A stretch of 64,000 bases of DNA from an uncultured Eubacteriales bacterium (GTDB lineage: Bacteria; Actinomycetota; Coriobacteriia; Anaerosomatales; JAUVQN01): NCBI GenBank assembly GCA_964406675.1, contig CAYOSP010000004.1, forward strand, positions 45,426-109,425. Direction: 5' to 3'. The stretch's first letter is position 1, and every line of letters begins with the position of its first letter. The notes under the pieces are model-generated. The model saw only the letters and a program-made list of their open reading frames with translations. It searched no databases and had not been told where the DNA came from. This document shows positions 22,660 through 58,444 of this stretch, in pieces. The position numbers and the translations under genes were made by a program.

Positions 22660-25371
<2,712 letters not shown>

Positions 25372-34037: not shown

Positions 34038-34054
34038 GCTAGACTCTGCCTGCC

Positions 34055-44952: not shown

Positions 44953-45606
44953 TCATCGGCTGCGGGTGCCTGCCACGACCTGCTCGTGGTTCAGGATGGT
45001 GACGAGGAGCACTCCGCCTATCACGTTACCGATGAGCGCGGGGATGAGGAAGCCTCCGAGGTAGTCGCCCCAGCCGAGCGCCCCCCGAGCCACCGCGAAC
45101 AGCACCTCGGCGGAGCCGGCCACCACGTGCGAGAAGTCCCCGAGTCCGATGATGTAGGTGAACAGGAAGATCACCGCGACCTTGGATTCCCTGGCCGCTG
45201 CGGGCAGGAGCCAGACGACCAGGGCGATCAGCCAGCCCGCGAAGACGCCTCCCGTGACGGTGGACCAGAAGCCCGGCTCCGCGGCGCTGAGAGCGATCGC
45301 GAGCAGGGCGTCCTTGACGCCCGGTCCGACGAGGTCCGCGCCGGAGAGGAAGTAGGCGAACAGCCCGGTGCCGATGAGGTTCGCCGCGAGCACGACGACC
45401 CACAGGCGCACGAGGCGCCACGCCTCGCTCCAGCAGCGGTCGTGCAGGAAGGGGAGGACGGTGGTGAGCGTGTTCTCGGTGAAGAGTTGCTGGCGGCCGA
45501 GGATCGCGCCGTGGACCACGGTGGCGCTGATCGCGGTGCGGCGGCTGATCTCGTCGTACTCGGTGGCGGTGTCCTGCTCGACCCGCGGGACGTCTTCTCT
45601 CGCCAT
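44953..45606 (-). CDS. Formate/nitrite transporter (FNT) family channel
   Basis: FAGWLIALVVW, GDFSHVVAGS and IGNVIGGVLLV resemble the FNT signature segments. 217 aa, short for the family. The start overlaps the upstream stop (TGATG). Confidence 0.65.
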   Translation of the reverse strand: MAREDVPRVEQDTATEYDEISRRTAISATVVHGAILGRQQLFTENTLTTVLPFLHDRCWSEAWRLVRLWVVVLAANLIGTGLFAYFLSGADLVGPGVKDALLAIALSAAEPGFWSTVTGGVFAGWLIALVVWLLPAAARESKVAVIFLFTYIIGLGDFSHVVAGSAEVLFAVARGALGWGDYLGGFLIPALIGNVIGGVLLVTILNHEQVVAGTRSR

Positions 45607-46976
45607 CAGCCCGCGGTCCAGCTGGAGGCCGCCCAGCCGAGCACCTCGTTGAACGCCGGGTGGACCCCGCGGGTCTCGGCGATCCGACTCACATGCGTGC
45701 GGCCGTGCACCGCGAGCGCGAGCGGGAACGAGAGGTCGGTCGCGGATTCACCGGCCACCTGCGCGCCGATCACCGTGCCGTCGGGCTCGGTGAGGATCTT
45801 CACCATCCCCTTGCGCCGGTCGGCGATGATCGCGGCGCCGAGGTGGTCGAACCCCATGGAGGCCACCCGGTAGTCGGCACCCTCCCGGCGCAGCGCCTGT
45901 TCCGTCTTGCCGACCACGGCGAGCTGCGGGACGGTGAAGCACGTCGAGGGGAGGTGATCGTAGCGCGCCTCCGGCTCGGGGCCGCCCAGGAGGTGTCGGC
46001 CGATCTGCCGGCCGTCCTGCCCCGCCACCGGGGTGAACATGGGAGGCCCCTTGGCGTCTCCGCCGAACCACACGCGCGGGTTGGTCGACCGGAGGGGAGG
46101 CCCGAAGATCGTCCTGCCTCGTTCGTCGACCTCGATGCCGGCGGCGTCGAGGTCCAGCGCGTCGACCTGCGGCACCCGCCCGATGGCGACCAGCACGCGT
46201 TCGGAGACGATCGAATCGACCTCCTCGCCGTCAGCGTCCACCACCTGCGTGGTGATCGCGCCGCGCTGACCGGAGAACGCCCCGGCGCTCACGCCGCCGC
46301 GCAATTCCACGCCGAGCTCGCCCAGCGCGCGTTCGGCGAACGAGGAGATGTCCTCGTCGAAGACCCTGTGCACGAGCCTGTCGCCGTGCATGAGGACCGT
46401 GACGTCGGTGCCGAACGAGGCGAATATGCCCGCGAACTCCGCGGCGATGAATCCGCCGCCGACGATGACGAGGGAGGAGGGCAGTTCGGGGTAGGAGAGG
46501 GCGTCGCGACTGTAGTCGGCGAGATCGGCGCCGGGCACGTCGAGGAGCCGAGGCTTGGAGCCGGTGGAGACGAGCGCCGTGTCGAACCGGACGCGCCGGT
46601 CCCCGATCAGGACGACGTCCTCGTCGACGAATCGCGCGGGTTCCTTCACCAGCTCGATCCCCGCGGATCGCGCGATCTCGTCCTGGTCGCCCGCGTAGGA
46701 CTCCTGCGCGTGCCACTTCCAGGCGAGGACGCCGGGCCAGTCCAGCCCGGGCTCGCCTGTGAGCACGCCGAACTGCTCGGCCTCCGACGCTTCGCGGTAC
46801 GTGCGCGCGGCATGGTACAGGGACTTCTTCGGCATGCATCCCCACCACAGGCACGTCCCGCCGGTCCGGGCCTCCTCCGCCGAGACCACATGCACGCCGG
46901 CCCGAGCGAGCATGCGTCCGCACGAGTTGCCGGCGCTGCCCGCGCCGAGTACCACGTGTGTCCTGTCTTCCGGCAT
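45606..46976 (-). CDS. Class I pyridine nucleotide-disulfide oxidoreductase (glutathione/mycothione/lipoamide reductase family)
   Basis: VVLGAGSAGNS FAD fold, redox disulfide GGTCLWWGCMPKK, second fold VIVGGGFIAAEFA, and a C-terminal HPAFNE His-Glu dyad. Confidence 0.8.
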   Translation of the reverse strand: MPEDRTHVVLGAGSAGNSCGRMLARAGVHVVSAEEARTGGTCLWWGCMPKKSLYHAARTYREASEAEQFGVLTGEPGLDWPGVLAWKWHAQESYAGDQDEIARSAGIELVKEPARFVDEDVVLIGDRRVRFDTALVSTGSKPRLLDVPGADLADYSRDALSYPELPSSLVIVGGGFIAAEFAGIFASFGTDVTVLMHGDRLVHRVFDEDISSFAERALGELGVELRGGVSAGAFSGQRGAITTQVVDADGEEVDSIVSERVLVAIGRVPQVDALDLDAAGIEVDERGRTIFGPPLRSTNPRVWFGGDAKGPPMFTPVAGQDGRQIGRHLLGGPEPEARYDHLPSTCFTVPQLAVVGKTEQALRREGADYRVASMGFDHLGAAIIADRRKGMVKILTEPDGTVIGAQVAGESATDLSFPLALAVHGRTHVSRIAETRGVHPAFNEVLGWAASSWTAG

Positions 46977-47068
46977 GATTCCCTCCAGGGATCGCGTTGC
47001 TGGTTCTCTCTACCCGGGTTGTATTCCCGGGGTGCCGCTTCCAGAATCGACCATGTAGCATCCAACCC

Positions 47069-47238: not shown

Positions 47239-47607
47239 ATGGAGGGCGCTTCCGGACAGAGCGTGCTCTTCGTGTTGGGACTGGCCACTTCGGCGGTCGC
47301 GTTCATACTCTTCGTGTTCCTCGTCAACGCGGTGCTCTCTCCGCGCAAGCCGACGGAGGAGAAGGGCCTGCCGTACGAGTGCGGCATGGACCAGGCGGGT
47401 CGGCCCTGGAACGCGGTCAACGTGCGCTTCTACCCGGTCGCCGTGCTGTTCGTACTCTTCGACGCGGAGGCCGCGCTGCTGTTCGCGGTGGCCGGCGGAT
47501 TGAGGGGCTCGTGGGTCGCGCTCGGAGAGGTCGCGGTCTTCACCGGCTTCCTCGCGTTCGGACTCTTCTACGCATGGCGCAAGGGGGCGCTCGCGTGGCG
47601 ATCGTAG
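47239..47607 (+). CDS. nuoA: NADH-quinone oxidoreductase subunit A
   Basis: Three TM helices and the KGLPYECGMD motif. ATG 47239 lies 5 nt after GGGAGG; the track start 47200 is an extension. Confidence 0.9.
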   Translation: MEGASGQSVLFVLGLATSAVAFILFVFLVNAVLSPRKPTEEKGLPYECGMDQAGRPWNAVNVRFYPVAVLFVLFDAEAALLFAVAGGLRGSWVALGEVAVFTGFLAFGLFYAWRKGALAWRS

Positions 47608-48200
47608 ACCGCATCGCAGACGGGCTGGACGGCGCGCCGGGCGGTGGCCTCATCCTCACCTCGCTCGACTCGCTGATGGACTGGGCGAGGGGCCGGTCGC
47701 TGTGGGCGCACCCGATGGGGACGGCCTGCTGCGCGATGGAACTCATCGCCGCCTCGTTCTCGAAGTTCGACTTCGACCGCCACGGTACGTTCCCGAGGCC
47801 CGATCCCCGGCACGTGGACGTGATGATCATCGCGGGCACGATCACCCGCAAGATGCAGCCGGCGATCAAGCGCCTGTACGAGCAGCTGCCCGAGCCGAAG
47901 TGGGTCATCGCGATGGGCAACTGCGCCGTCTCCGGCGGCATCTTCTTCTACGATTCGTACTCGGTGGTGCGCGGCGCCGACACGTTCCTCCCGGTCGACG
48001 TCTACATCTCCGGATGCCCGCCGCGCCCCGAGTCCCTCCAGGACGCCGTCATCCAGCTGCGCGAGCGCATCGGGACGGAGTCGATCGTCGAAGGCGCCGA
48101 GCGTGAGCGCGAACTCCTGCTCCCGCGCACGCCGGACGAGGCTCGCACCGCCCGCGGCCGCGACGAAGGCGGGCCCGTGGAGGACGGTGACGGCTCGTGA
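47595..48200 (+). CDS. nuoB: NADH-quinone oxidoreductase subunit B
   Basis: [20 protein letters not shown] and SGCPPRPE (N2 cluster ligands). GTG 47595 overlaps nuoA by 13 nt. There is an acidic/basic C-terminal tail of about 40 aa. Confidence 0.9.
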
Positions 48201-48658
48201 ACGTCCAGGAGCTGCGCGACCACCTATGCGAGCGCTATCCCGACCTGTGCCCGCTGTTCTCGATCGAGTTCGGGGACGGGGTGCTCCAGGTGACCTGCGA
48301 TCGCCTGCACTCCGCCGCCGAGGACCTCAAGGCGCTCGGTTTCGATCGCATGGGCATGATGACGGCCGTGGACCGCGAGGAGCACTTCGAGATCGTCTAC
48401 CGTCTGCAGTCACGAGCCATGCAGGCCGGCATGCTCCTGAAGTGCGAGGTCTCGCGCGAGAATCCGCGGACGCGCTCGCTCGTCGACCTCTGGCCCTCGG
48501 CCGATTGGCCCGAGCGCGAGGTCTACGACCTGTTCGGCATCGTCTTCGAGGGCCATCCAGACCTTCGCAGGATCCTGCTCCCCGACGATTTCGAGGGGCA
48601 TCCGCTGCGCAAGGACTTCGAGGACGAGTGGACGATACACCGGCCCGACTACATCTAG
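48197..48658 (+). CDS. nuoC: NADH-quinone oxidoreductase subunit C
   Basis: 30-kDa-subunit family: [47 protein letters not shown] overlap with nuoB. Confidence 0.9.
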
Positions 48659-48669: not shown

Positions 48670-49803
48670 ATGGCGTTCGAGCAGGCTGAAGCGTGCGGTG
48701 TCGATCCGGACGGCGACGAACTGATCGTCAACGTCGGTCCCTCGCACCCCTCGACACACGGCGTCTGCCGCGTGGTGGTCCGTCTCGACGGCGAGACCAT
48801 CACGAAGGCCGAGCCGGTCATCGGGTATCTCCACCGCGGCATCGAGAAGATGGCGGAGAACCGCACCTACCTGCAGGTCGTGCCGCTCACCGACAGGCTC
48901 GACTACGTCGGTTCCATGTACGCGAACTGGGCGTATTGCCGCGCGGTCGAGCGGCTCGCCGGCATCCGCGTTCCCGAGCGCGCGGAATACCTGCGCGTGA
49001 TCACATGCGAGCTGCAGCGCATCGCGAGTCACATGATGGCGATCGGCTCCAACGGCGCGGACACCGGGGCGACGACGATGTTCGTCTGGGCGTTCGACCT
49101 GCGCGAGCGCGTCGTCGAGCTGTTCGAGTCGCTCTGCGGCGCGAGGCTCACCTACAACTACGTCCGCCCCGGGGGCGTCGCGTTCGATTCCCCCGCGGGC
49201 TGGGAGGACGACGTCCGGGAGTTCCTGAAGGGCGCCCCGAAGGCGCTCGACGAGATGGACCGCCTCTTCTTCGGCAACGTGATCGCCCGCGGACGCATGA
49301 AGGGCGTGGGCGTGCTCAGTTCCGAGGACGCGGTGGCGCACGCGGCGTCCGGACCCGTCGCGCGCGGCTCGGGAGTGAACTGGGACCTGCGCAAGCACGA
49401 CACGTACTCGGTGTACCCGCGCTTCGATTTCGATGTGCCCATCGGCACCAACGGCGACGCGTTCGACCGGGCGAGGGTGCGCATGCTGGAGTGCTACCAG
49501 AGCGTGCGCATCATCGAGCAGGCGCTCGAGCAGATGGAGCCGGGCGATGTCGCCACCGAGGGCCTGCCGCGTCTGCTCCGGCCGGGCGTGGGTGACGCCT
49601 ACGACCACATCGAGTCCGCGCGCGGCTCCCTCGGCGTCTATCTCGTGAGCGACGGCGGCGTGCGCCCCTACCGGATGAAGGTCCGCTCGCCCGCGTTCCA
49701 GAACCTCTCGCTGCTGTCGCGGCTCGCCGTCGGGCACACGATGTCCGACCTGGTCGTCATCCTCGGCAGCCTCGACCCCGTGTTCGGGGAGGTCGACAGA
49801 TGA
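48670..49803 (+). CDS. nuoD: NADH-quinone oxidoreductase subunit D
   Basis: NVGPSHPSTHGV, GYLHRGIEK, and a C-terminal SLDPVFGEVDR. No NiFe-type CxxC motifs. ATG 48670 follows AGGAGGG. Confidence 0.9.
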   Translation: MAFEQAEACGVDPDGDELIVNVGPSHPSTHGVCRVVVRLDGETITKAEPVIGYLHRGIEKMAENRTYLQVVPLTDRLDYVGSMYANWAYCRAVERLAGIRVPERAEYLRVITCELQRIASHMMAIGSNGADTGATTMFVWAFDLRERVVELFESLCGARLTYNYVRPGGVAFDSPAGWEDDVREFLKGAPKALDEMDRLFFGNVIARGRMKGVGVLSSEDAVAHAASGPVARGSGVNWDLRKHDTYSVYPRFDFDVPIGTNGDAFDRARVRMLECYQSVRIIEQALEQMEPGDVATEGLPRLLRPGVGDAYDHIESARGSLGVYLVSDGGVRPYRMKVRSPAFQNLSLLSRLAVGHTMSDLVVILGSLDPVFGEVDR

Positions 49804-50753
49804 GCGGCTTCCTCGGCGGGGTGGTGTGGGGGCTCGGCGGCGGCATCGCCATCGCGATCGCCGCGCTGTTCGGCGTGTGGCTCGAGCGCAAGGTCTCCGC
49901 GCGGATACAGATGCGGCTGGGCCCGCTCGAGACCGGTCCCGCCGGACTGCTGCAGACGTTCGCCGACACCCTCAAGCTCCTGCTCAAAGAGGACGTCACC
50001 CCTGCGGGCGCCGAGGTGGGGATGTTCCGCGCCGCGCCGCTCATCGTCTTCGCGCCGATCGCGATGTCCCTGGCCGTCATCCCGTTCGCCGCGGGTTGGG
50101 CCCCGCTTGACACGACGGTGGGAGTGCTCTTCTTCATCGCGGTACCCTCGGTCAGCGTCATCGGCATCCTGGTGGCCGGGTGGTCCTCGCGGAACACCTA
50201 CGCGACGCTCGGCGGGCTCCGTGCCGCCGCACAGATGGTCTCCTACGAGGTCCCGCGCACGCTCTCGATACTGTCGGTCGTCGTCCTGGCCGGCTCCCTG
50301 AGGCCGCTCGACGTGGTCGACGCGTGGGAGTGGTGGTGGATCCCGGCGCTCTTCATCGGGTTCGTGGTCTACCTCATCTCCTCCGCCGCCGAGCTCAATC
50401 GCGGCCCCTTCGACCTTCCCGAGGCGGAATCGGAGCTGGTGGCGGGGTACTTCGCCGACTACTCCGGCATCCGCTGGGCGATCTTCATGATGTCCGAATA
50501 CGGCGGGCTGCTCGCGGCGTCGCTCTTCGGTGCTGCGGTCTTCCTCGGCGGCCATCACGGGCTGCCGGGAGTGTGGGGCGGCCTGCTGCTCGTCGCGCTC
50601 GCGGTGCTGCTCGTCGTGGTCTTCATGTGGGCGAAATGGACGTTCCCGCGCATGCGCCCCGATCAGCTCATGTCGCTCGCGTGGAAGGTGCTCACCCCGA
50701 TGGCCCTCGTCCAATTGGCGATCGTGGGGGTGATCGTCCCATGGCTGGGATAG
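49800..50753 (+). CDS. nuoH: NADH-quinone oxidoreductase subunit H
   Basis: WLERKVSARIQMRLGP, ELNRGPFDLPEAESELVAGY, 8 TM helices. ATGA overlap with nuoD. Confidence 0.95.
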   Translation: MSGFLGGVVWGLGGGIAIAIAALFGVWLERKVSARIQMRLGPLETGPAGLLQTFADTLKLLLKEDVTPAGAEVGMFRAAPLIVFAPIAMSLAVIPFAAGWAPLDTTVGVLFFIAVPSVSVIGILVAGWSSRNTYATLGGLRAAAQMVSYEVPRTLSILSVVVLAGSLRPLDVVDAWEWWWIPALFIGFVVYLISSAAELNRGPFDLPEAESELVAGYFADYSGIRWAIFMMSEYGGLLAASLFGAAVFLGGHHGLPGVWGGLLLVALAVLLVVVFMWAKWTFPRMRPDQLMSLAWKVLTPMALVQLAIVGVIVPWLG

Positions 50754-52879
50754 ATCCCCGCAGCGTGCGCCCGGAGGCGCCGAAGGTCTTCGCCTCGGAC
50801 GACAAGCCGAACGGGCTCCGCGGATTCCTTCGCGGCTGGAAGTCCCTCGTCGTGGGGCTCGGCCTCACGAGCCGCAGGGCGCTGACGAAGCCGAAGACAC
50901 TGCGGTACCCGCACGAGAAGGTGACGCTCTCGCCGAGATGGAGGGGCGCGCTGCGCCTGCGGGGAGTCCTGGGCCGCGACGAGATCCCGATCCTGCGCGG
51001 CGATTCCACCGAGTACAACGCGCTCATCCAGGACCTCTACGAACGCGAGCGGCTCGCGCCCTGCGTCGGCAACTGCCCGGCCAACGTGGACGCCCGCGGC
51101 CAGAATTACTACGTGGCCGAAGGGGATCCCGTCTCCGCCTACGAACTGGTCCGCGAGCGCAACATCATGCCCGGGGTGCTCGGCCGGATCTGTCACCACC
51201 CCTGCGAGACCGCCTGCAGGCGCAACTTCTACGACGAGCCGCTCGCGGTACGGCCCATCCACCGTCAGATCGCCGAGGAGTTCGCCAAGGTGCGCGAGGA
51301 GCGGGTGAAGCCCTTCGAGCGCACCCGCCAGGAGCGGATCGTGGTCATCGGTTCCGGTCCGTCGGGGCTCACCGCGGCGTGGGACCTCCTCAAGCAGGGC
51401 TACGAGGTGGTCATGTACGAGAAGGAGGACAAGCCGGGCGGGGCGCTCTACACGGGAGTGCCGTCCTACCGCCTTCCCCGAGAGGTGCTCCACGATGAGA
51501 TCGACGACCTGGTGCGCGCCGGGCTGGACCTGCGGACCGGCGTCGAGGTCGGCAAGGACGTACGACTCGCCGACCTCATGGACGAGTACGACGCGGTGCT
51601 CGTGGCCGCCGGACTCGCGGTGAGCCGCATCCTCCCCATCCCGAACCACGACGCCGAGGGCGTCCGGGGCGCGCTCGAGTTCCTCAAGGAGGCGAACTTC
51701 CATCACGAGACCGGCGTGCGCGGCAAGCGCGTGCTCGTCATCGGCGGAGGGAACGTGGCGGTGGACGTCGCCCGGTGTGCGCTCAGGACGGGCGCGACCG
51801 ACGTGAGCCTCGCGTGTCTCGAAAGTGACGAAGAGATGCCGTGCCATCCCTGGGAGATCGAGGAGGCGGTCGAGGAGGGCGTCACCGCCATGTGCGGCAA
51901 CGGTCCCGAGGAGGTGCTCGTCGAGGACGGCAAGGTCGTCGGCATGCGGCTGAGGGAATGCCTGTCCGTCTTCGACGCGCAGGGCCGGTTCTCGCCGGAG
52001 ATGGGCGAGAACACCACGGACCTCCCGTGCGACGTGGTCGTGTTCGCCGTCGGCCAGGGCTCCCGGCTGGAGGACGTGGTCGAGGGCACGGACGTCGAGC
52101 TCGACGAGCGCGGCAACATGGTCGTGGACGGCAAGCTGTTCACGAGCACGAACCCGCGGGTCTTCGCCTGCGGCGAGGTCGTCACCGGTCCCGGCAGCTG
52201 TATCGCGTCGATCGCCACCGGGCACGAGGCCGCCACGTCGATCCACCGCTATCTGAGCGGGCAGAGCCTCAAGAAGGAGCGCGTCGAACGTCCGGTGCCG
52301 ATCTATGCGAAGTACGCCAAGGCCGACGTGCGCGACGTCGAGCCCTCCCGGCGGAGGGTGAGGATGCCGTTCGCGCGTCCGGAGGAACGGGCGACCGACT
52401 TCCGTCCTGTGGAGCTGGGCCTCACGTATCAGGAAGCGGTGGCCGAGGCCTCGCGATGCCTGCGCTGTCAGTCCGAGGTGTGCGTCGGGTGCACGTTCTG
52501 CGCGCGGACCTGCCCCGACTACGCGATCCAGGTGGAACGCGTCGACGATCCCGGCGAGCGCTGCCTCACGCGCTATGACCTCGATCTCACGAAGTGCTGC
52601 TACTGCGGTCTGTGTGCCGAGCAGTGCCCCACCAACGCGCTCGCGCACACCGGGCAGTACGAGCTGACCTTCTACCACCGGGACCTCATGATCTTCGACA
52701 AGAGCGAGATGCTCAGGGATGCCGGCGACACCCGTGCGACCGGGGCCGAGGGCCGGGAGGCGGCATGCTTCCCGCCCGGCGGCATGCGCCATCGGGGCCC
52801 GGGCGATCTCGAGGGCGGGACGGCGCTCGGCGAGCCTCCGGAGGCCATCAGGCCCAGGAAGGGGGGCGGCCGTGGCTGA
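50741..52879 (+). CDS. nuoI: NuoI carrying an inserted GltD/NfnB-like FAD/NAD(P)H oxidoreductase module
   Basis: A single 712-codon frame. Residues 1-78 are a NuoI N-terminus (KPKTLRYPHEKVTLSPRWRGALRL). CVGNCP and GRICHHPCETAC are Fe-S cysteine motifs. IVVIGSGPSGLTAAWDL..YEKEDKPGG and VLVIGGGNVAVDVARCA are dinucleotide folds. Residues 581-592 (CVGCTFCARTCP) and 619-630 (CCYCGLCAEQCP) precede the NuoI tail QYELTFYHRDLMIFDK. ATG 50741 overlaps nuoH by 13 nt. Confidence 0.85.
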   Translation: MAGIDPRSVRPEAPKVFASDDKPNGLRGFLRGWKSLVVGLGLTSRRALTKPKTLRYPHEKVTLSPRWRGALRLRGVLGRDEIPILRGDSTEYNALIQDLYERERLAPCVGNCPANVDARGQNYYVAEGDPVSAYELVRERNIMPGVLGRICHHPCETACRRNFYDEPLAVRPIHRQIAEEFAKVREERVKPFERTRQERIVVIGSGPSGLTAAWDLLKQGYEVVMYEKEDKPGGALYTGVPSYRLPREVLHDEIDDLVRAGLDLRTGVEVGKDVRLADLMDEYDAVLVAAGLAVSRILPIPNHDAEGVRGALEFLKEANFHHETGVRGKRVLVIGGGNVAVDVARCALRTGATDVSLACLESDEEMPCHPWEIEEAVEEGVTAMCGNGPEEVLVEDGKVVGMRLRECLSVFDAQGRFSPEMGENTTDLPCDVVVFAVGQGSRLEDVVEGTDVELDERGNMVVDGKLFTSTNPRVFACGEVVTGPGSCIASIATGHEAATSIHRYLSGQSLKKERVERPVPIYAKYAKADVRDVEPSRRRVRMPFARPEERATDFRPVELGLTYQEAVAEASRCLRCQSEVCVGCTFCARTCPDYAIQVERVDDPGERCLTRYDLDLTKCCYCGLCAEQCPTNALAHTGQYELTFYHRDLMIFDKSEMLRDAGDTRATGAEGREAACFPPGGMRHRGPGDLEGGTALGEPPEAIRPRKGGGRG

Positions 52880-53366
52880 GTGGGTGTTCTGGGGACTCTC
52901 CGCGCTCGTGGTGATCGGCGCGCTCGTGGTGATACTGTGCCGCGATATCATGCGGATGGTACTCGCCCTCGCCACGTTCCTGTTGTCGACCGCCGGGTTC
53001 TTCCTCTTCTACGGCATGGCGTTCCTCGCGGCCGCGCAGGTCTTCGTGTACGTGGGCGGCGTGCTCGTGCTCGTGCTCTTCGCCGTGATGGTGGTGCGTC
53101 GCACGGAGGCCGGACGGCCGCTCCTCGAGAGCCGGCACGACCTGAGCGCCGCGGTCATCTCGGTGGGACTCTTCGCGCTCCTCGTCCGCATGCTCGGGCC
53201 GAGCGCTCCCGAGGTGTCGGAGGTGTCGATCCCGGAGACCTCTCTCGCCGAACTCACAGAGATCCTGCTGGGCCCGATGCTGCCGCACCTGGAACTCATC
53301 GGCGTGCTGCTGCTCATCGCGCTCGTGGCCGCCGTCGCCGTCATCGGGAGGGAGGAGCGCTCGTGA
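52872..53366 (+). CDS. nuoJ: NADH-quinone oxidoreductase subunit J
   Basis: (M)AEWVFWGLSALVVIGALVVI...AAAQVFVYVGGVLVLVLF, 5 TM helices. GTG 52872 overlaps the nuoI end. Confidence 0.85.
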   Translation: MAEWVFWGLSALVVIGALVVILCRDIMRMVLALATFLLSTAGFFLFYGMAFLAAAQVFVYVGGVLVLVLFAVMVVRRTEAGRPLLESRHDLSAAVISVGLFALLVRMLGPSAPEVSEVSIPETSLAELTEILLGPMLPHLELIGVLLLIALVAAVAVIGREERS

Positions 53367-53665
53367 ACGTCGTCTACGTGACCGCCGCCCTCTTCTGCAT
53401 CGGCCTCTACGGCGTGCTCACCCGACGCGAGCTCATCGCCGTACTCGCGAGCCTCGAGCTCATGATGGGAGCGGCGAACATCCAGCTGGTCGCATACGCC
53501 GCGTCTTCCGGCGAGGGCGCCCTGCACGCGGCCGGTCAGGGCCTCGGGCTCGTGGTCCTCGCGCTGGCCGCGGCGGAAGCCGCCGTGGGGTTGGCGATAT
53601 TGGTGACGATGTCCCGTCGCTGGAAGCTCGCCCGTGTCGAGGAGCTCACGGAGGTGCAGGGCTAG
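53363..53665 (+). CDS. nuoK: NADH-quinone oxidoreductase subunit K
   Basis: 100 aa, 3 TM helices, LASLELMMGAANI...AAAEAAVGLAI. GTGA overlap with nuoJ. Confidence 0.9.
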   Translation: MNVVYVTAALFCIGLYGVLTRRELIAVLASLELMMGAANIQLVAYAASSGEGALHAAGQGLGLVVLALAAAEAAVGLAILVTMSRRWKLARVEELTEVQG

Positions 53666-55528
53666 ATGGACTGGCTGGTGGAGCACGCCTATCTCGCTCC
53701 GGCGGTCCCGTTCGCCTTGAGCGCGGTCCTGTTCCTGCTCGGCAGGTTCCTCGGCCGCGCGTCCGCATGGCTCGCGATGCTCGGTCCCGTCTGGGTGCTG
53801 CTGACCGGCGCGGGCGCGCTGGCCGCGGTCTGGAGCGCCGGGCACGGCGGCATGCTCGCGCCGCCGTGGGTCGGACACCGGGCGGCGAGCGGCTCGGTCA
53901 CGTGGATGTCGCTGGGGGGCGTGGACATCGGGATGGGCTTCTCGGTGGACGGACTCTCGGCGATCATGCTCGCGGTGGTCGGTCTCGTGTCGCTCATGGT
54001 GATGCTGTTCTCGGTCGGGTACATGGCCGCCGACGAGGACTACGTGCGCTACTTCGAGACGCTCTCGCTCTTCACCGCGTCGATGACCGGTCTGGTCATA
54101 GCCGACGGTCTCATCGGCCTGTTCCTCGCCTGGGAACTCGTGGGCGTGTGCTCCTACCTGCTGATCGGGTTCTGGTACGAGAAGCCCTCCGCGTCCGCGG
54201 CGGCCATCAAGGCGTTCATGGTGACCCGTGTGGGCGACGTCGGGTTCCTGCTGGGACTCGCGTACCTGTGGAGCCAGGCCGGCGCGCTCTCGCTCGAGGG
54301 CGTCATGGCCTGGGTGCCGAGCGCGGGCGGCGCGGCCGTGGTCACCGCGGCGCTGCTCCTCTTCGCGGGCGCGGCGGGCAAGTCCGCGCAGTTCCCGCTG
54401 CACATCTGGCTCCCGGACGCCATGGAAGGCCCCACGCCGGTCTCCGCGCTCATCCACGCCGCGACCATGGTCGCGGCGGGCGTCTTCCTGGTGGGCCGCA
54501 CGTGGCCGCTGTTCGAGGCCGCCGAGGCGGCCCGCACGGTGATGCTCGCGTGCGCGATCGTCACCGCGCTCGGGGCCGCGACGGTCGCGGTCGCCCAGCG
54601 CGACATCAAGAAGGTGCTCGCGTACTCGACCATCAGCCAGCTCGGCTTCATGTTCGCGGCGCTCGCGGTGGGAGCGTGGCGGATAGCGGTCTTCCACCTC
54701 GTGACGCACGCGGCGTTCAAGGCGCTGCTCTTCCTGGCTTCGGGCAGCGTGATCCACGGCGCCGAGACCCAGGACATGCGCGAGATGGGCGGGCTCGCGA
54801 GGAAGATGCCGGTCACGGCGGCCACCTGGGTCGTCGGCGCGGCGGCGCTCGCCGGCATCCCGCCGCTCGCGGGCTTCTTCTCCAAGGACGAGGTCGTCCA
54901 CGCGGTGACCGCCTCCTCGCCGCTCGTGGGCGTCCTGCTCCTGCTCGCGTCCCTGCTCACCGCCTTCTACATCACGCGCGCCACCCTGCTCACGTTCACC
55001 GGGGATTACCGGGGGACGCATCATCCGCACGAGTCCGGACCGTCCATGCTCGTCCCGCTCGCGGTGCTCGCCGTCGCGAGCGCGGTCCTCGGCTTCTTCG
55101 GACACTCGATCGCGGAGGCGCTGGGCGGGGAGGCCGAAGCGCTCGACGCCGTGACCGCCGCGGTGTCCGTCGCGGTGGCCCTGACCGGCGTCGCGGCGGC
55201 CTGGCTGCTCTACCGACCGCAGGGTGCGGGCGACGAGGCGGTCGAGCTCAGGCTGGGGCGCGGCTGGAGCGTGCTTGCGGAGGCCTACGGATTCGACGCG
55301 GCGGTGACGCGGGGCTCGGTGGGGATCCTGCGGGGACTCGCCGGGGTGGCCTACGCGGTCGTCGACCGACTCGTGTTCGACGGCGTGGCCGAGGGCGCGG
55401 CCGGTCTGTCGCGGTCCTTCGGGCGCGGCGTCTCGCGCGTGCAGAACGGCGACGTGCACTGGTACGGCGCGCTCGCCGGTGCGGGCGTCATCGTCATGAT
55501 CGCCGTCACGATACTCGCGGGGAGGTGA
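53666..55528 (+). CDS. nuoL: NADH-quinone oxidoreductase subunit L
   Basis: Antiporter-like subunit: WELVGVCSYLLIGFW, GKSAQFPLHIWLPDAMEGPTPVSALIHAATMV, with a C-terminal lateral helix and TM region. 620 aa. Confidence 0.95.
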   Translation: MDWLVEHAYLAPAVPFALSAVLFLLGRFLGRASAWLAMLGPVWVLLTGAGALAAVWSAGHGGMLAPPWVGHRAASGSVTWMSLGGVDIGMGFSVDGLSAIMLAVVGLVSLMVMLFSVGYMAADEDYVRYFETLSLFTASMTGLVIADGLIGLFLAWELVGVCSYLLIGFWYEKPSASAAAIKAFMVTRVGDVGFLLGLAYLWSQAGALSLEGVMAWVPSAGGAAVVTAALLLFAGAAGKSAQFPLHIWLPDAMEGPTPVSALIHAATMVAAGVFLVGRTWPLFEAAEAARTVMLACAIVTALGAATVAVAQRDIKKVLAYSTISQLGFMFAALAVGAWRIAVFHLVTHAAFKALLFLASGSVIHGAETQDMREMGGLARKMPVTAATWVVGAAALAGIPPLAGFFSKDEVVHAVTASSPLVGVLLLLASLLTAFYITRATLLTFTGDYRGTHHPHESGPSMLVPLAVLAVASAVLGFFGHSIAEALGGEAEALDAVTAAVSVAVALTGVAAAWLLYRPQGAGDEAVELRLGRGWSVLAEAYGFDAAVTRGSVGILRGLAGVAYAVVDRLVFDGVAEGAAGLSRSFGRGVSRVQNGDVHWYGALAGAGVIVMIAVTILAGR

Positions 55529-55532: not shown

Positions 55533-56981
55533 GTGCTGTTGAGCCTGCTGATAGCGCTGCCGCTGGCCGGTCTTCTGGCGACCGTCCTCGTCGGCAGGGT
55601 CCGGCCCACCGCCGCGCGGTGGACGGCCTTGCTCGCCGCACTCGGCGAGGTGGCCCTGTGCGTCGCGGCAGCGGACGCCTGGTACGCAGGGCAACCCGCG
55701 CCGTTGGTGGAGTCCTTCGCGGCCGACGTGCGGTTCACGTTCTGGTCGCTCTCACTCGACGGGCTGTCGCTGCCGCTCGTGGGACTGACCGTGGTGCTCA
55801 CCGTCGTCGCGGTGCTCGCCTCGTGGCGCGTGGAACACAACCCGGGCGCGCACCACGCGCTCCTGCTCGGCCTGCAGGCCGCGACGGTGGCGGTGTTCCT
55901 CGCCGAGGACCTGGTGCTCTTCTACGTCGCGTGGGAGGCCGTGCTCATCCCGATGTTCTTCCTGATCGGGAAGTGGGGTCACGAACGGCGCAGGCACGCC
56001 GCCATGAAGTTCTTCCTGTACACGTTCGCTGGAAGCGCGCTCATGCTCGTGGGCATCCTGCTCGTGCTGTCCCACACCGGGCAGTCCGGCATCACCGCCG
56101 CCGTCCAGACGGGACTGCCGCCCGGCGCCGGCGGCCTGATCTTCTGGCTGATCGCCGCGGGCCTCCTGGTGAAGGTGCCCGTCGTGCCGCTGCACACATG
56201 GCTCCCGGACGCCCACGTCGAGGCCCCGACGGCCGGCTCCATCATGCTCGCGGGCGTGCTCCTCAAGATGGGCGGCTACGGCCTCATCCGGCTCGCCGCG
56301 CCCCTCGCGCCGCAGGCCTTCCAGGACGCCGCCCCGGTGCTCGCCGCGCTCGGCATGGTGGGCATCGCGTACGGCGCGCTCGTCGCCATGGCGCAGACCG
56401 ATCTGAAGCGCCTGGTCGCGTACGGTTCCGTGGCGCACATGGGATTCGTGGTGCTCGCCGTCTCGGTGGCCACGCCCGCGGCGTTCTCCGCCGCGATGCT
56501 CGCGATGGTGAGCCACGGCTTCATCTCCGCACTCCTGTTCCTGCTCGTCGGAGCGCTGTACGAACGCACCCACACGCGGAGGATCGCCCGCTTCGGGGGT
56601 CTCATGCGGACGATGCCCACATGGGGCGTGGCGTTCTCGTTCGGAGCGCTCGCGAGCCTCGGCCTTCCCGGTCTATCCGGCTTCCCCGGCGAGCTGGTCA
56701 CCATGCTCGAGGCCTACGGCGCGTGGGGCTGGTGGATCGTGGTGCCCGGGGTGGGCCTCGCGGTGTCCGCGGCGTATCACCTGTGGGCGGTGAGGCGTGT
56801 GAACCATGGTCCGGTCGTCGAGGAGTGGGCCGGCCTCACGGACCTCGGGCTCGATGAGCGCCTCGCGGTCCTGCCGCTGGTGGCGGGGATCGTCGCCGTC
56901 GGCGTGTGGCCCGCGATCGTGACGACGGTGAGCGATCCCGTGATGCGGAGCCTCGCCTTCCTGGCGGGAGGGGGCGCCTGA
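55533..56981 (+). CDS. nuoM: NADH-quinone oxidoreductase subunit M
   Basis: Antiporter-like subunit: WEAVLIPMFFLIGKWG, KVPVVPLHTWLPDAHVEAPTAGSIMLAGVLLKMGGYG. Confidence 0.95.
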   Translation: MLLSLLIALPLAGLLATVLVGRVRPTAARWTALLAALGEVALCVAAADAWYAGQPAPLVESFAADVRFTFWSLSLDGLSLPLVGLTVVLTVVAVLASWRVEHNPGAHHALLLGLQAATVAVFLAEDLVLFYVAWEAVLIPMFFLIGKWGHERRRHAAMKFFLYTFAGSALMLVGILLVLSHTGQSGITAAVQTGLPPGAGGLIFWLIAAGLLVKVPVVPLHTWLPDAHVEAPTAGSIMLAGVLLKMGGYGLIRLAAPLAPQAFQDAAPVLAALGMVGIAYGALVAMAQTDLKRLVAYGSVAHMGFVVLAVSVATPAAFSAAMLAMVSHGFISALLFLLVGALYERTHTRRIARFGGLMRTMPTWGVAFSFGALASLGLPGLSGFPGELVTMLEAYGAWGWWIVVPGVGLAVSAAYHLWAVRRVNHGPVVEEWAGLTDLGLDERLAVLPLVAGIVAVGVWPAIVTTVSDPVMRSLAFLAGGGA

Positions 56982-58444
56982 TGACCGCCACCGTCCAGAC
57001 CTGGGGTCTCCTGCAATCCGCCGCGCCGGTCTTCGTGGGGGTCGGTGTCGCGCTCGTCGTGCTGGTGCTCGACGCCCTGCATCTGCGCAAAGCGGCCGTG
57101 GGTATCGCGATCGTGGGCCTGTTCGCGGCAGCCGGGGTGTGCCTGTGGTCCGGTCTGAACGTGGACTCGGCGGTCGTGGAGGACGTGGCGGTGTTCGGCG
57201 GCGCCGTGTCCGGCCTGGCCGCGTTCACGTACCTGCTCGGCGCGCTCGCGCTCCTCGGTTCGGCGGAGTGGCTGGTCGCCTCCGAGAGCGGTGGGGTGGC
57301 GGGCGGGCTCGTCGCGTTCGGCGGCGCGGCCTCCGCGCTCCTGATGGGCTCGTCGGACCTGGCCGTGACCGTCATCGCGCTCGAGGTGCTCGCACTCACC
57401 GGGTACGCGCTGGTAGCGACGGGGGGGACCGCGCGGGCCTACGAGGCCTCCATGAAGTACTTCGTGCAGGGGGCCGTCGTGGCCGGGGTGATGCTGTACG
57501 GTCTGGCGATCGGCTTCGGCGCGGTGGGCTCGTCGCTCGCGTACCGTGATCTCGCCGCCCCGTTCCAGGCCACGGTGGTCTCGCAGCCGGCGACGATCTT
57601 CATCCTGTTCATGCTCGCGGCGTTCGCGTTCAAGCTCGGCGCCGCGCCCTTCCATTCGTGGGCTCCCGACGCGTATGAGACCGCACCCTCGGGCATCGCC
57701 GCGGCCGTCGCCTCCGGACCGAAGGTCGCCGTGCTCACGGGCGCGGGCATCCTGTTCGCGGGGGTCGCGGGGGCGGTGGACCGGTCGACCGGGGAATGGG
57801 CGCCCGTGTGGCTCTGGGCGGCCGTGGTGGTCGCCATGCTCTCGATCGTCGTCGGGAACTTCGGCGGTCTGCGACAGCTGCGCTACCAGCGGATGCTCGC
57901 GTACTCGGGGATCGCGCAGGTCGGGTACGCCGTGGCGGGATTCGTCGCGCTGGGAAGCCGCTTCGCGGAGATGATCCTGTTCGGTCTCACCTACACGTTC
58001 GCGGTGGTGGCCGGGTTCCTCGTGGTCGACGCGGTGCGTGAGTCACAGCCGGACTGGAACGGCAACACCCCGGCGCTGGCCGGCTTGGGCGTCCGCCGAC
58101 CGTTCCTGGCCGCCGCGATCTCGGTGGTCATGCTCTCACTCACCGGCATACCGCTCACCGTGGGGTTCTGGGGAAAGTTCTTCCTGTTGAACGGGATCGC
58201 CTCCTCGGGCTGGGAATGGCTCGCCGTCGCGGTGATCGTGGGCTCGGTGGTCTCGTTCGGGTACTACGGCGGCGTCATCAGGTCCATGTACCTAGAAGAG
58301 CCCGCAGCGCCCGTGGCCATGACGACGCGGCGTCCGGGAGCCGCGACCTGGACCGTGCTGCTGATCGCTCTCGCCATCCTGGCCGGGGGCGTCCTTCCGC
58401 TGTTCACGGGCCCTGAGTGGCTCTTCGCGATCTTCAGTCTGTGA
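56981..58444 (+). CDS. nuoN: NADH-quinone oxidoreductase subunit N
   Basis: Antiporter-like subunit: FKLGAAPFHSWAPDAYETAPSGIAA. ATG 56981 shares its A with the nuoM TGA. Confidence 0.9.
   Translation: MTATVQTWGLLQSAAPVFVGVGVALVVLVLDALHLRKAAVGIAIVGLFAAAGVCLWSGLNVDSAVVEDVAVFGGAVSGLAAFTYLLGALALLGSAEWLVASESGGVAGGLVAFGGAASALLMGSSDLAVTVIALEVLALTGYALVATGGTARAYEASMKYFVQGAVVAGVMLYGLAIGFGAVGSSLAYRDLAAPFQATVVSQPATIFILFMLAAFAFKLGAAPFHSWAPDAYETAPSGIAAAVASGPKVAVLTGAGILFAGVAGAVDRSTGEWAPVWLWAAVVVAMLSIVVGNFGGLRQLRYQRMLAYSGIAQVGYAVAGFVALGSRFAEMILFGLTYTFAVVAGFLVVDAVRESQPDWNGNTPALAGLGVRRPFLAAAISVVMLSLTGIPLTVGFWGKFFLLNGIASSGWEWLAVAVIVGSVVSFGYYGGVIRSMYLEEPAAPVAMTTRRPGAATWTVLLIALAILAGGVLPLFTGPEWLFAIFSL

Follow-up and report, generated by a model that had tools for sequence, protein, structure and literature searches.

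The nuoI gene of the complex I operon in this 64-kb window (the whole stretch of DNA analysed, 64,000 nucleotides of a Coriobacteriia, Anaerosomatales-like genome) encodes a NuoI subunit into which a flavoprotein cassette of about 500 residues has been inserted; the cassette is, by its homologies, a circularly permuted GltD/NfnB-type module with FAD, NAD(P)H and two [4Fe-4S] sites. We estimate the probability at about 0.7 that this cassette is the pyridine-nucleotide interface of a complex I built from 11 subunits (NuoA, B, C, D, H, I*, J, K, L, M and N, with no NuoEFG) working from NAD(P)H to quinone, where it most likely stands in for the absent NADH-oxidising head of three subunits. No description of a NuoI with an inserted permuted cassette was found in the literature searched; the first-pass annotation likewise named no characterised complex I of this architecture.

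The gene, which we call nuoI*, lies between nuoH and nuoJ in an operon with the order nuoABCDH-I*-JKLMN (Table 1) and consists of one unbroken frame of 712 codons, as the first-pass annotation had claimed. The list of open reading frames starts it at a GTG at 50180, and the extra upstream part overlaps nuoH; on a 7,334-bp contig of an independent Logan assembly, which differs from the window by one base and encodes the identical protein, the start is placed at the ATG at 50741. The same protein (P0001) is also present as an identical copy in an NCBI MAG. GC3 is 0.83-0.93 in all segments of the gene and matches the neighbouring nuo genes; thus, base composition gives no hint of a chimeric join. 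Pfam detects Fer4_20 at residues 106-183, Pyr_redox_2 at 199-494 and Fer4_7 at 581-633. The source databases name the protein only 'FAD-dependent oxidoreductase'.

Table 1. Genes of the nuo operon and segments of nuoI* in window coordinates.
Feature	Position	Strand	Remarks
nuoA	47239..47607	+	Oxidored_q4
nuoB	47595..48200	+	NF005012 213 vs cut-off 116
nuoC	48197..48658	+	Complex1_30kDa
nuoD	48670..49803	+	NF004739 471.8 vs cut-off 360
nuoH	49800..50753	+	
nuoI* (NuoI + inserted flavoprotein cassette)	50741..52879	+	single 712-codon gene, stop codon included
NuoI N-terminal segment (residues 1-75)	50741..50965	+	residues 33-75 homologous to NDUFS8 27-69 (i-E 9e-5)
N-side linker (residues 76-105)	50966..51055	+	length variable in family; AF2 helix at 89-101
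Cassette Fe-S helical domain (residues 106-190)	51056..51310	+	Fer4_20 profile positions 30-110
Cassette FAD domain + NAD(P)H domain	51311..52270	+	GSGPSG 204-209, E227; GGGNVA 335-340; ACLES 358-362
C-side linker + relocated GltD/NfnB N-terminal segment (residues 545-576, RPEERATDFRPVELGLTYQEAVAEASRCLRC)	52271..52468	+	ligands C573, C576
NuoI C-terminal 2x[4Fe-4S] ferredoxin domain (residues 577-662)	52469..52726	+	aligns NDUFS8 73-159
Gly/Arg/Pro-rich C-terminal tail (residues 663-712)	52727..52876	+	not conserved; overlaps nuoJ start
nuoJ	52872..53366	+	Oxidored_q3
nuoK	53363..53665	+	
nuoL	53666..55528	+	
nuoM	55533..56981	+	
nuoN	56906..58444	+	start uncertain; ATG about 25 codons downstream likelier

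The host protein is recognisable on both sides of the cassette. The two halves match consecutive parts of NDUFS8, and therefore the insert (residues ~76-576) replaces about 3 residues in the loop just ahead of the first CxxCxxCxxxCP motif. The N-terminal segment has an amphipathic helix and a TLRYPxEK…PRWRG motif and is kept in distant homologues, whereas the C-terminal tail is unconserved (homologues are ~680 aa long). The ferredoxin domain (C581/584/587/591 and C619/622/625/629) matches NDUFS8, Nqo9 and NuoI chains with E-values of about 1e-21 and carries the NuoI-specific inter-motif loop and tail. In all these features, and in its location between nuoH and nuoJ, the protein resembles NuoI/Nqo9/NDUFS8 (TYKY); the difference is the cassette before the first motif. 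Because the cassette interrupts NuoI, the intact protein falls below the cut-off of every curated NuoI model scored; with residues 79-576 deleted in silico it reaches 115.9 against TIGR01971 (cut-off 113.05), covering positions 1-121 of 121. These alignments bear out an earlier reading of residues 1-78 as a NuoI/Nqo9 N-terminus, of the C-terminal end as both NuoI motifs plus tail, and of the insert as a replacement for the short loop preceding them; the junctions, then placed at ~50975 and ~52470, were found at nt ~50966-52468, which is essentially the same.

The cassette is homologous to NfnB, GltD and the N-terminal part of dihydropyrimidine dehydrogenase (E 4e-73 to 4e-45), to StnC (8oh5_C, E 6.5e-84) and to the NfnABC large subunits of C. 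saccharolyticus (9bov_A) and T. sibiricus (9n5u_A). Its order is altered: the N-terminal segment of GltD/NfnB (…EASRCLRC) is found at the C-terminal end of the insert, five residues ahead of the first NuoI cysteine. A de-permuted construct demonstrates the circular permutation: it aligns to NfnB (4ylf_B) in a single stretch (residues 11-462), with the E-value improving from 4e-73 to 7.8e-80. The first-pass annotation had described a full GltD-like unit between the NuoI halves; the homology holds, but the normal order does not. All the motifs it quoted are present, including the cassette cysteine motifs, but it did not list C573 and C576 (RCLRC) at the C-terminal junction. The helical domain, with C108, C112, C151, C155, E156 and C159, can be aligned to NfnB and StnC, and these six ligands are invariant in 48 homologues (62-77% identity), together with C573, C576, the eight NuoI cysteines and the FAD and NAD glycine motifs. 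These residues are kept even in relatives at 37-51% identity. The AF2 model is confident for the cassette core only: pLDDT is >90 over most of the FAD/NAD(P)H region and <50 at residues 1-22, 49-82 and 575-712.

The architecture recurs at 20 further loci (L001-L017, L020, L021 and L023, each a full-length relative or a contig-truncated copy) with 35-78% identity, always at the nuoI position, and all 20 have the nuoABCDH-I*-JKLMN cluster without a separate nuoI. Its carriers are Coriobacteriia, including an Anaerosomatales-labelled MAG with the same operon, other Actinomycetota and further bacteria. An assembly chimera, a two-gene read-through or a non-functional insertion might be suspected in a MAG-derived contig of high-GC DNA, where long spurious open reading frames occur (for example, an antisense 770-aa ORF at 50663-52975). 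The conservation data refute artefact or decay, to which we give next to no weight: besides the identical protein in an independent assembly, more than 120 clusters at 64-78% identity have equal length and domains, at least 11 more 50%-identity clusters, down to 37% identity, have the same architecture, the flanking nuoH and nuoJ are constant, the cofactor ligands are all invariant and codon-position GC is uniform.

NuoB has the N2 cluster motifs, a 12-letter motif and SGCPP, with the tandem Cys; NuoD clears the NuoD equivalog cut-off, lacks NiFe cysteine motifs and has the His/Tyr quinone-site motifs GPSHPSTHG and DRLDY. None of the ORFs scanned in the window, 64 kb of a larger genome, resembles nuoE, nuoF or nuoG, which agrees with what had been noted for the operon. 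In genomes of cultured Anaerosomatales, nuoEFG were likewise reported to be wholly absent (PMC9686372).

The same permuted cassette is found inside another Fe-S protein in StnC of S. ovata StnABC (8oh5) and in the NfnABC large subunits (chain A of 9bov and 9n5u), where the exit motif EA..RCL.C is also followed directly by host cluster ligands. In StnC (cassette at aa 102-565 of a NuoG-like scaffold), electrons pass from NADPH to FAD, to clusters C7 and C6 and on to the host chain, without bifurcation (PMC10482914). Because StnC and NfnA of NfnABC use the cassette in this way, they provide an experimental precedent for an NAD(P)H-input mechanism. However, the host there is a NuoG/HydA-like protein, which is soluble and works together with a bifurcating module of the HydBC type, whereas here it is the NuoI of a membrane proton pump with no HydBC/NuoEF-like partner. 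NfnB, GltD and DPD share the fold, the cofactors (FAD, NAD(P)H and two low-potential [4Fe-4S] clusters) and the ligation by seven Cys and one Glu/Gln-type residue, but they are separate subunits or domains in linear order, whereas the nuoI* cassette is permuted, inserted and without YRR; the protein scores under the curated cut-offs for gltA and gltD. A gltD-related flavoprotein takes the place of NuoI in the mbx-like operons of Thermotoga and certain proteobacteria (Degli Esposti 2015, PMC4758237); the idea is similar, in that a GltD-type NAD(P)(H) module is coupled to the subunit at the NuoI position of a membrane complex resembling complex I. That case, compared here by description, received only a brief mention: it was called a 'substitution' in Mrp/Mbx-type operons, the acceptor being NAD(P)+. 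The flavoprotein is possibly akin to NCBIfam PRK13984-type proteins. In that profile a NuoI-like ferredoxin (22-116) precedes an unpermuted GltD (198-609), a tandem fusion and not an insertion, and nuoI* scores 330 against its cut-off of 946. The closest non-Nuo relatives of the cassette are cassette-ferredoxin-MvhD(FlpD) proteins (for example P0128 and L019; 42-44% identity), whose genes adjoin MetV/MetF in Wood-Ljungdahl clusters. They share the CLE motif and an EMPxxPWEIEE signature with nuoI*, but they are soluble, methylene-THF reductase-linked and devoid of the NuoI N-terminal segment, and their ferredoxin has neither the NuoI loop nor the NuoI tail, with an MvhD-like domain coming after it.

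The nucleotide used by nuoI* is probably NADH, because the YRR motif that binds the 2'-phosphate of NADPH, present in StnC and the NfnABC large subunits, is replaced by ACLE in this protein and in its relatives from Coriobacteriia, with an invariant Glu361 at the YRR site; this assignment follows the general Rossmann-fold rule, not any characterised CLE-type enzyme. YRR persists in a sister subfamily, which probably uses NADPH.

The electron path that we infer, with its cofactor occupancy, nucleotide, quinone acceptor and direction, would begin with hydride transfer from NAD(P)H to the cassette FAD. From there, single electrons would travel via the proximal and then the distal cassette cluster to the two NuoI clusters, to N2 in NuoB and to quinone at NuoD/NuoH, and quinone reduction would drive proton pumping via NuoH/A/J/K/L/M/N; with a reduced quinone pool, the pathway may run backwards. 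The permutation sets both cassette ends between C576 and C108, ligands of one cassette cluster, which we take to be the distal one by homology with DPD ligation; thus, the point where electrons leave the cassette would also be its anchor to NuoI, with five residues from C576 to the first NuoI ligand, C581. The junction-adjacent cysteines presumably ligate the N2-proximal NuoI cluster and not the N5-facing one, given the usual 2x[4Fe-4S] cross-ligation; the electron entry point into NuoI is uncertain.

The same machine might run in the opposite direction, as a proton-motive-force-driven quinol:NAD(P)+ oxidoreductase with the cassette as its NAD(P)+-reducing exit, and would then supply NAD(P)H for biosynthesis in lithotrophic growth on H2 or formate. 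Both complex I and GltD-type modules can in principle work in either direction, and such reverse flow is plausible, although we regard it as a tentative possibility. It would suit the Anaerosomatales, one MAG of which carries the operon: cultured members are lithoautotrophic on H2 or formate and have a cytochrome-b-linked group 1i uptake hydrogenase without complexes II and III (PMC9686372). On the other hand, nothing in the sequence indicates direction, and the fact that no respiratory quinones were detected in two cultured isolates, both H2/formate-oxidising lithotrophs (PMC9686372), is as awkward for a quinol-oxidising complex as for a quinone-reducing one.

It is unlikely that the complex depends on ferredoxin, with reduced ferredoxin donating to the NuoI clusters and the cassette forming a side branch for Fd:NAD(P)+ oxidoreduction or redox balancing, much as suggested for the gltD-related subunit of Thermotoga mbx-like operons. 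Ferredoxin has also been put forward as the donor of other complexes without NuoEFG, and NDH-1 and Fpo-like complexes do take ferredoxin at their NuoI homologue. For the Nuo complex of Anaerosomatales, ferredoxin was the donor suggested by Khomyakova et al. (PMC9686372), and NAD(P)+ reduction by the gltD-related subunit was proposed for mbx-like complexes (Degli Esposti 2015, PMC4758237). However, the former proposal did not note the insert, the operon shows no evident subunit for docking ferredoxin, NdhS-like or otherwise, and the cassette joins the protein near the NuoI clusters. Moreover, if electrons went from ferredoxin to NAD+ by way of NuoI and the cassette, they would skip N2 and the quinone site, where coupling occurs, and the conserved pumping apparatus would therefore be pointless. 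Still less probable is a bifurcating complex I, in which the cassette FAD would split the electron pair of NAD(P)H between NuoI/N2/quinone and a second acceptor of low potential, for instance ferredoxin. The cassette does share homology with bifurcating NfnB, whose R201 is conserved here as R244; yet StnC, the closest solved relative with the same permutation, has lost bifurcation despite keeping this Arg (PMC10482914). Furthermore, neither the protein nor the operon contains an NfnA-like partner or a second acceptor site near FAD, and the two [4Fe-4S] clusters, which form the low-potential branch in NfnB, lead here to a high-potential acceptor.

The built-in NAD(P)H electron input proposed in the first-pass annotation is thus supported by the StnC/NfnA precedent, with the nucleotide now narrowed to probably NADH. 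Non-canonical inputs are known from Fpo, which uses FpoF (F420H2), from cyanobacterial NDH-1, which uses ferredoxin with NdhS/V/O, and from the flavodoxin-linked Campylobacter Nuo. Like these, the nuoI* complex combines the 11-subunit core with a lineage-specific donor module instead of NuoEFG; whereas they rely on separate subunits or soluble carriers, here a pyridine-nucleotide-dependent donor would be built covalently into NuoI itself.

The first-pass annotation had described nuoI as one uninterrupted frame, and this stands: translation of the 712 codons is stop-free (coordinates are collected in the table), and an independent gene call on a Logan contig of run SRR7048218 (7,334 bp, 1 base different from the window) starts at the same ATG and gives an identical 712-aa protein, here termed NuoI*. 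In the raw ORF list the frame reaches upstream to a GTG at 50180, an extension that falls within nuoH. The window DNA is 69% G+C, and long chance ORFs occur in it; therefore, the length of nuoI* by itself proves nothing, and the evidence for it is homology and conservation. Third-position GC is 0.83-0.93 across all nuoI* segments and 0.89-0.95 in the flanking nuo genes, and nothing suggests a chimeric join; an artefact or a chimera is excluded by the conservation data described below. An antisense ORF spans all of nuoI*. We regard it as a chance product of the high GC content, since it is the plus frame that has homologues and shows the GC3 signal. Elsewhere in the window, tRNA-Asn and tRNA-Met lie within a long high-GC ORF that is a real gene (response regulator-PAS-HD) only in its 3' part, so raw ORFs are unreliable in this DNA. 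NuoI* ends in a Gly/Arg/Pro-rich tail that overlaps the start of nuoJ (GTG at 52872) and is absent or unconserved in homologues (~680 aa); it may be a lineage-specific extension or reflect a shifted stop.

The two ends of NuoI* are the two halves of NuoI. In a search against all PDB sequences, residues 33-75 aligned to NDUFS8 27-69 (i-E 9e-5) and residues 577-662 to NDUFS8 73-159; the latter segment matched NDUFS8, Nqo9, and E. coli NuoI with E values from 1e-21 to 1e-13. The C-terminal part carries two CxxCxxCxxxCP motifs with a long NuoI-type loop between them, plus the NuoI tail, and the N-terminal amphipathic segment with its (T)xxYPxEK…PRFRG motif is kept in 11/11 distant full-length relatives. 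The halves are thus neighboring stretches in a normal NuoI, and the insert takes the place of ~3 loop residues before the first CxxCxxCxxxCP motif. The intact protein reaches no curated NCBIfam cut-off: its best score, to a generic 'NAD(P)-binding protein' model, is 442.9 (cut-off 516), and TIGR01971 (NuoI) gives 90.4 against 113.05. Deletion of residues 79-576 in silico raises the latter to 115.9 bits over profile positions 1-121/121, above the cut-off. The location and content originally assigned to the gene were therefore borne out by the NDUFS8 alignments and by the healed NuoI, and profile searches of the insert placed Fer4_20 and Pyr_redox_2 above their gathering thresholds. Membership in PRK13984 ('putative oxidoreductase') was considered and rejected (score 330 vs 946; different domain order): that profile describes a tandem in which a NuoI-like ferredoxin (22-116) precedes an unpermuted GltD (198-609), whereas NuoI* is an insertion of a permuted one.

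The closest PDB relatives of the inserted cassette are large subunits of electron-bifurcating transhydrogenases, namely 9bov_A (C. saccharolyticus Nfn-ABC, E 5.6e-90), 8oh5_C (S. ovata StnC, E 6.5e-84), and 9n5u_A (T. sibiricus NfnABC, E 1.4e-77). Each aligns unbroken over query residues ~103-630, which match 8oh5_C 101-624 and 9bov_A 99-624 in one continuous alignment each. NfnB (4ylf_B, E 4e-73, query 107-508) and then GltD rank after them, and Foldseek with the AF2 model returned the same order, with StnC/NfnA-type chains on top. The order of parts within the cassette is not the linear one of GltD, where the …EA.RCL.C segment is N-terminal. The Fer4_20 match starts at profile position 30, and the N-terminal piece of GltD/NfnB (…nFeEVelGyt.eeA..EA.RCLqC) is relocated to residues 545-576 (RPEERATDFRPVELGLTYQEAVAEASRCLRC), behind the flavin domains, as it likewise is in StnC, 9bov_A, and 9n5u_A. 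A de-permuted construct (residues 540-577 joined to 106-512) aligned with T. maritima NfnB residues 11-462 in one stretch, and the E value improved to 7.8e-80. These alignments identify the insert as a GltD/NfnB cassette that is circularly permuted in the way seen in StnC and NfnA. The earlier claim that a full GltD-like unit is spliced into NuoI thus held for the module and its motifs, with the refinement that its parts are not in linear order. StnC and NfnA share with NuoI* the insertion of a permuted cassette within an Fe-S host protein; their host, however, is NuoG/HydA-like ([2Fe-2S] N-domain, FdhF-like C-domain) with a HydBC/NuoEF-like bifurcating partner, whereas the host of NuoI* is NuoI.

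The permutation opens the cassette within the first GltD cluster motif (C573-x2-C576 … C108-x3-C112), after the second cysteine and before the third. By homology with dihydropyrimidine dehydrogenase, we take these cysteines to belong to the distal cluster, the electron exit; therefore, both NuoI tethers would leave the cassette at its exit cluster. C576 is five residues ahead of the first NuoI ligand, C581, and the NuoI cysteines next to the junction presumably belong, given ordinary ferredoxin cross-ligation, to the N2-proximal cluster rather than to the one oriented toward NuoG in canonical complex I. In an alignment of 48 homologues (62-77% identity), C108, C112, C151, C155, E156, C159, C573, and C576 are invariant; we take these seven cysteines and one glutamate to be the ligand set of the two NfnB clusters. 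Also invariant are the NuoI cysteines C581/584/587/591 and C619/622/625/629, the FAD motif G204-x-G206 (with G209 nearly so), the second dinucleotide motif G335-G-G-N-V-A340, and R244, the counterpart of NfnB R201. The cassette ligands and glycine motifs align with their NfnB and StnC counterparts, and the cofactor-site residues are kept in relatives down to 37-51% identity. Loss of essential cofactor-binding residues, which would have spoken against a functional module, was thus seen at none of these sites. An AF2 model built from the 48-homologue alignment had a mean pLDDT of 70, with values >90 for most of residues 180-510 and <50 for the NuoI parts.

In NfnB, NfnL, StnC, and both NfnA proteins, a (V/I/L)YRR(T/S) motif lies behind the second Rossmann strand, and its arginines bind the 2'-phosphate of NADPH. 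This motif is not found in the window NuoI*, which has ACLES at 358-362 instead; its clade shows no variation at L360 and E361. A preference for NADH is classically marked by an acidic residue at this position. Because the acidic E361 is present and both arginines are lost, we infer with moderate confidence that the window protein uses NADH; we know of no characterized enzyme of this CLE type. A group of full-length NuoI* proteins (P0125, P0127, P0129, P0157, P0162, and P0164) retains YRR and is presumably NADPH-linked. Most of the 144 representatives retained in our cassette tree (proteins P0121-P0270) are of the CLE type, among them HdrA-like giants of ~1,500 aa, and YRR is the motif of the characterized enzymes; the specificity of the large CLE-type subfamily appears to be uncharacterized.

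The window operon encodes, in canonical order with I*, NuoA (122 aa), B, C, D, H, J, K, L, M, and N. NuoB has the GTACCAME, MGNC, and SGCPP motifs, and we take the tandem cysteines of the first to be the N2 site; NuoD has GPSHPSTHG and DRLDY, presumably the His and Tyr motifs of the quinone site, and no NiFe cysteine motifs. NuoB passes the cut-offs of NF005012 and TIGR01957 and NuoD that of NF004739 (subfamily or equivalog level). By these sequence features, the operon encodes a bona fide complex I core of the 11-subunit type. An Mbh/Ech hydrogenase was rejected on two grounds: NuoD is devoid of NiFe cysteines, and both NuoB and NuoD pass Nuo cut-offs. Consistent with what had been noted for the operon itself, the ORFs scanned in the 64-kb window include no NuoE/F/G-like gene; the remainder of the window consists of housekeeping genes. 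No 2Fe-2S_thioredx/NuoF-like gene was found in the 6-10 kb flanks of five related loci (L015, L016, L020, L021, and L023), and both cultured Anaerosomatales genomes are reported to be entirely without nuoEFG (PMC9686372).

Several neighboring features of the window deserve mention in their own right. The nuoN ORF has an Arg/Asp-rich, non-membrane N-terminus, and its real start is more likely an ATG ~25 codons downstream (MTATVQ…). Just upstream of nuoA, and divergent from it, lies a flavoprotein gene of the dihydrolipoamide-dehydrogenase/disulfide-reductase class, adjoined by a formate/nitrite transporter gene; a similar flavoprotein gene is found upstream of the nuo operon in an Anaerosomatales MAG. 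The window also encodes a second primary ion pump, a pyrophosphatase, with a pyruvate phosphate dikinase gene near it.

Locations of features in the window, in the nuoI product, and at related loci
Feature	Location	Strand	Details
nuoI*	window 50741-52879	+	
Flavoprotein insert of NuoI*	residues ~76-576; nt ~50966-52468		
Fer4_20	NuoI* residues 106-183		Pfam, score 52.1 vs gathering 25.8
Pyr_redox_2	NuoI* residues 199-494		Pfam, score 105.8 vs gathering 26.1
4Fe-4S dicluster domain	NuoI* residues 581-633		Pfam
Gly/Arg/Pro-rich tail of NuoI*	window 52727-52876		last 50 residues, 80% G+C
ORF antisense to nuoI*	window 50663-52975	-	770 aa
nuoH	window 49800-50753		NADHdh, E 5e-101
nuoN ORF	window 56906-58444	+	GTG start overlaps nuoM by 76 nt
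Flavoprotein gene	window 45606-47009	-	Pyr_redox_2 + Pyr_redox_dim
Formate/nitrite transporter	window 44953-45747	-	
Membrane-bound H+-translocating pyrophosphatase	window 26391-28625	+	H_PPase, E 1.7e-271
Pyruvate phosphate dikinase	window 22543-25371		
Long high-GC ORF	window 32072-35275	-	
tRNA-Asn(gtt)	window 33698-33772	-	
tRNA-Met(cat)	window 33920-33994	+	
tRNA-Val(cac)	window 37816-37890	+	
Genes upstream of YRR-type nuo operon	L017:72-4944		
Cassette + ferredoxin + FlpD(MvhD) genes	L018:196-2783		
Cassette + ferredoxin + FlpD(MvhD) genes	L019:8001-11646		
nuoI* operon	L020:13196-21522		
Group-4 [NiFe]-hydrogenase-type cluster	L022:41-15416		
P0147	L022:5489-7363		624 aa
Flavoprotein gene, Anaerosomatales MAG	L023 1059-2408	-	

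In a protein collection clustered at 90% identity, the identical protein is accompanied by at least 119 further clusters at 64-78% identity, all 635-720 aa long and with the same Pfam set. Those that bear a name come from Coriobacteriia or Actinomycetota MAGs and are called either 'FAD-dependent oxidoreductase' or 'NADPH-dependent glutamate synthase beta subunit-like oxidoreductase'. A single-protein scan for close loci found NuoI* in 13 GTDB species representatives, mostly Coriobacteriia/Actinomycetota MAGs. More distant members came from HMMER, run exhaustively over 1.84 billion representatives of 50%-identity clusters; this yielded at least 11 clusters with the full-length arrangement (NuoI-N + cassette + NuoI-C) at 37-64% identity; one is from Ca. 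Subteraquimicrobiales, and one is from an unclassified bacterium, with relatives that include an Actinomycetota MAG. The fusion, for which the first-pass annotation had proposed a database search, is thus spread over Coriobacteriia, other Actinomycetota including Ca. Subteraquimicrobiales, and bacteria of unnamed affiliation. The only confirmed Anaerosomatales carrier is an 'Anaerosomatales bacterium' MAG. The window NuoD is 75-83% identical to the listed homologues from Coriobacteriia/Actinomycetota MAGs (79% for the Anaerosomatales one).

All 20 other loci examined (13 GTDB loci, the Logan contig, five distant loci, and one Anaerosomatales-labelled MAG) have a nuoABCDH-I*-JKLMN cluster and no separate nuoI. 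The fused gene lies between nuoH and nuoJ in the window and at every locus where the contig covers both sides; five short GTDB contigs end on the nuoH side, including one (L013) that is without nuoH entirely. In the nuoI* operon of locus L020, five Proton_antipo_M genes, which supply additional antiporter-like subunits, and a small unannotated ORF replace the usual L, M, and N. At locus L017, directly upstream of a YRR-type nuoABCDH-I*-JKL operon, there are a NuoE-like gene (2Fe-2S_thioredx) and a gene for a 1,389-aa protein with Fer2_4, a GltD cassette, and molybdopterin domains; this StnC/NfnA/formate-dehydrogenase-like protein bears the same cassette.

The nearest relatives of the cassette outside Nuo are cassette-ferredoxin-MvhD proteins, with 42-44% identity, the same CLE motif, and an EMPxxPWEIEE signature; their genes adjoin MetV/MetF in Wood-Ljungdahl clusters. 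At loci L018 and L019, such genes stand beside those for DUF5981 (MetV-like) and MTHFR and belong to a CODH/ACS Wood-Ljungdahl cluster; their cassette proteins are candidate NAD(H) input subunits of methylene-THF reductase. A neighbor-joining cassette tree (without support values) splits NuoI* into a CLE clade, placed beside the cassette-ferredoxin-MvhD proteins, and a separate YRR clade. However, in all NuoI* proteins the C-side junction is the same, with four residues that separate the RCL.C motif from the first NuoI cysteine; a linker motif on the N-side (…DYN…) occurs in some members of both types. The two-clade tree therefore conflicts with the identical junction geometry, which, together with the linker motif, would count against two separate insertions. 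Either one insertion followed by a change of specificity or two insertions may have taken place, and we do not rank these readings.

A cassette of the same kind occurs outside the nuo operons. P0147, encoded at locus L022, has a NuoI/HycF-like N-terminus, a GltD-type cassette (VCLES), and a C-terminal two-cluster ferredoxin domain. Its gene lies in a group-4 [NiFe]-hydrogenase-type cluster in the order NuoK-like, NuoL-like, NuoB-like, fused NuoC + NiFe large subunit, NuoH-like, P0147, HycI, and HypA/B/F/C/D/E, which points to an energy-converting hydrogenase linked to NAD(P)H in the same way.

NuoI and the GltD-like cassette are already known, the latter also in permuted, insertable form (Stn/NfnABC), and so are lineage-specific donor modules on the 11-subunit core. 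In the open-access PMC and bioRxiv literature we found no description of NuoI fused with a GltD-type module, and to that extent the insertion within a genuine nuo operon is both undescribed and uncharacterized. The sole related statement found is a one-sentence remark on mbx-like operons in which a gltD-related flavoprotein takes the place of NuoI (Degli Esposti 2015; PMC4758237), and the passages of a review that deal with GltD-like Fe-S flavoenzymes name no complex I member. The first paper on cultured Anaerosomatales lists nuoNMLKJIHDCBA, records that NuoEFG are absent, and proposes ferredoxin as the donor, with no mention of the flavoprotein insert (PMC9686372).

An experimental precedent for NuoI* is StnC, where the cassette (aa 102-565) sits in a NuoG-like scaffold. 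There, as established by cryo-EM and mutagenesis, NADPH is oxidized at the FAD, and single electrons pass via two clusters (C7 and C6) to the host chain without bifurcation (PMC10482914). For NuoI*, our analysis establishes the gene structure, permutation, homologies, ligand conservation, and synteny, and from these we infer cofactor loading, inter-cluster distances, nucleotide preference, acceptor, and direction. By homology with StnC, NuoI* would take electrons from NADH (NADPH in the YRR subfamily) at the FAD and pass them through the proximal and then the distal cassette cluster to the NuoI clusters, and from there via N2 to quinone at the NuoD/NuoH site, a flow that would power the proton-pumping membrane arm. 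The cassette would stand in for the NuoEFG N-module, as had been proposed in the first-pass annotation. Bifurcation by the cassette is unlikely, since an NfnA-like partner is absent and StnC itself does not bifurcate (PMC10482914). Ferredoxin as the donor, with the cassette as a side exit, is likewise improbable, because such a route would bypass the coupling site.

The acceptor and the direction of electron flow are less certain. The two cultured Anaerosomatales, lithotrophs that oxidize H2/formate and have a cytochrome-b-linked uptake hydrogenase, are on record with respiratory quinones 'not detected' (PMC9686372). As to the in vivo role, reverse electron transport that produces NAD(P)H is a serious alternative. 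The most far-reaching reading, to which we give a probability of roughly 55%, is that the Coriobacteriia/Anaerosomatales-type complex I is an 11-subunit FAD-based NADH:quinone oxidoreductase (or the reverse), in which the whole three-subunit FMN N-module has been replaced by a mobile, permuted GltD-type plug-in in NuoI that comes in NADH (CLE) and NADPH (YRR) versions and is also carried by the NuoI homologue of the L022 group-4 [NiFe]-hydrogenase-type complex. On this reading, the complex I superfamily would have arrived at pyridine-nucleotide coupling by a route independent of NuoEFG.

The permuted cassette seems to serve as a portable device for electron input, and it occurs in Stn/NfnABC, MetVF-linked proteins, formate-dehydrogenase-like proteins, NuoI, and a hydrogenase NuoI homologue. 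For members of the complex I family without NuoEFG, dependence on ferredoxin is routinely assumed. Should NuoI* prove to work as an NAD(P)H module, the metabolism reconstructed for a widespread subsurface actinobacterial lineage will have to be corrected; PGAP-style annotation masks the protein under 'FAD-dependent oxidoreductase'. The cultured relatives Anaerosoma tenue and Parvivirga hydrogeniphila may allow its function to be tested directly. Where the canonical N-module needs three subunits, FMN, and six to seven clusters, NuoI* would represent a second, far smaller solution, one domain with FAD and two clusters, and would bear on complex I evolution and on minimal or engineered versions of the enzyme. 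The CLE and YRR subfamilies would then constitute a natural experiment in coupling NADH versus NADPH to a proton pump.
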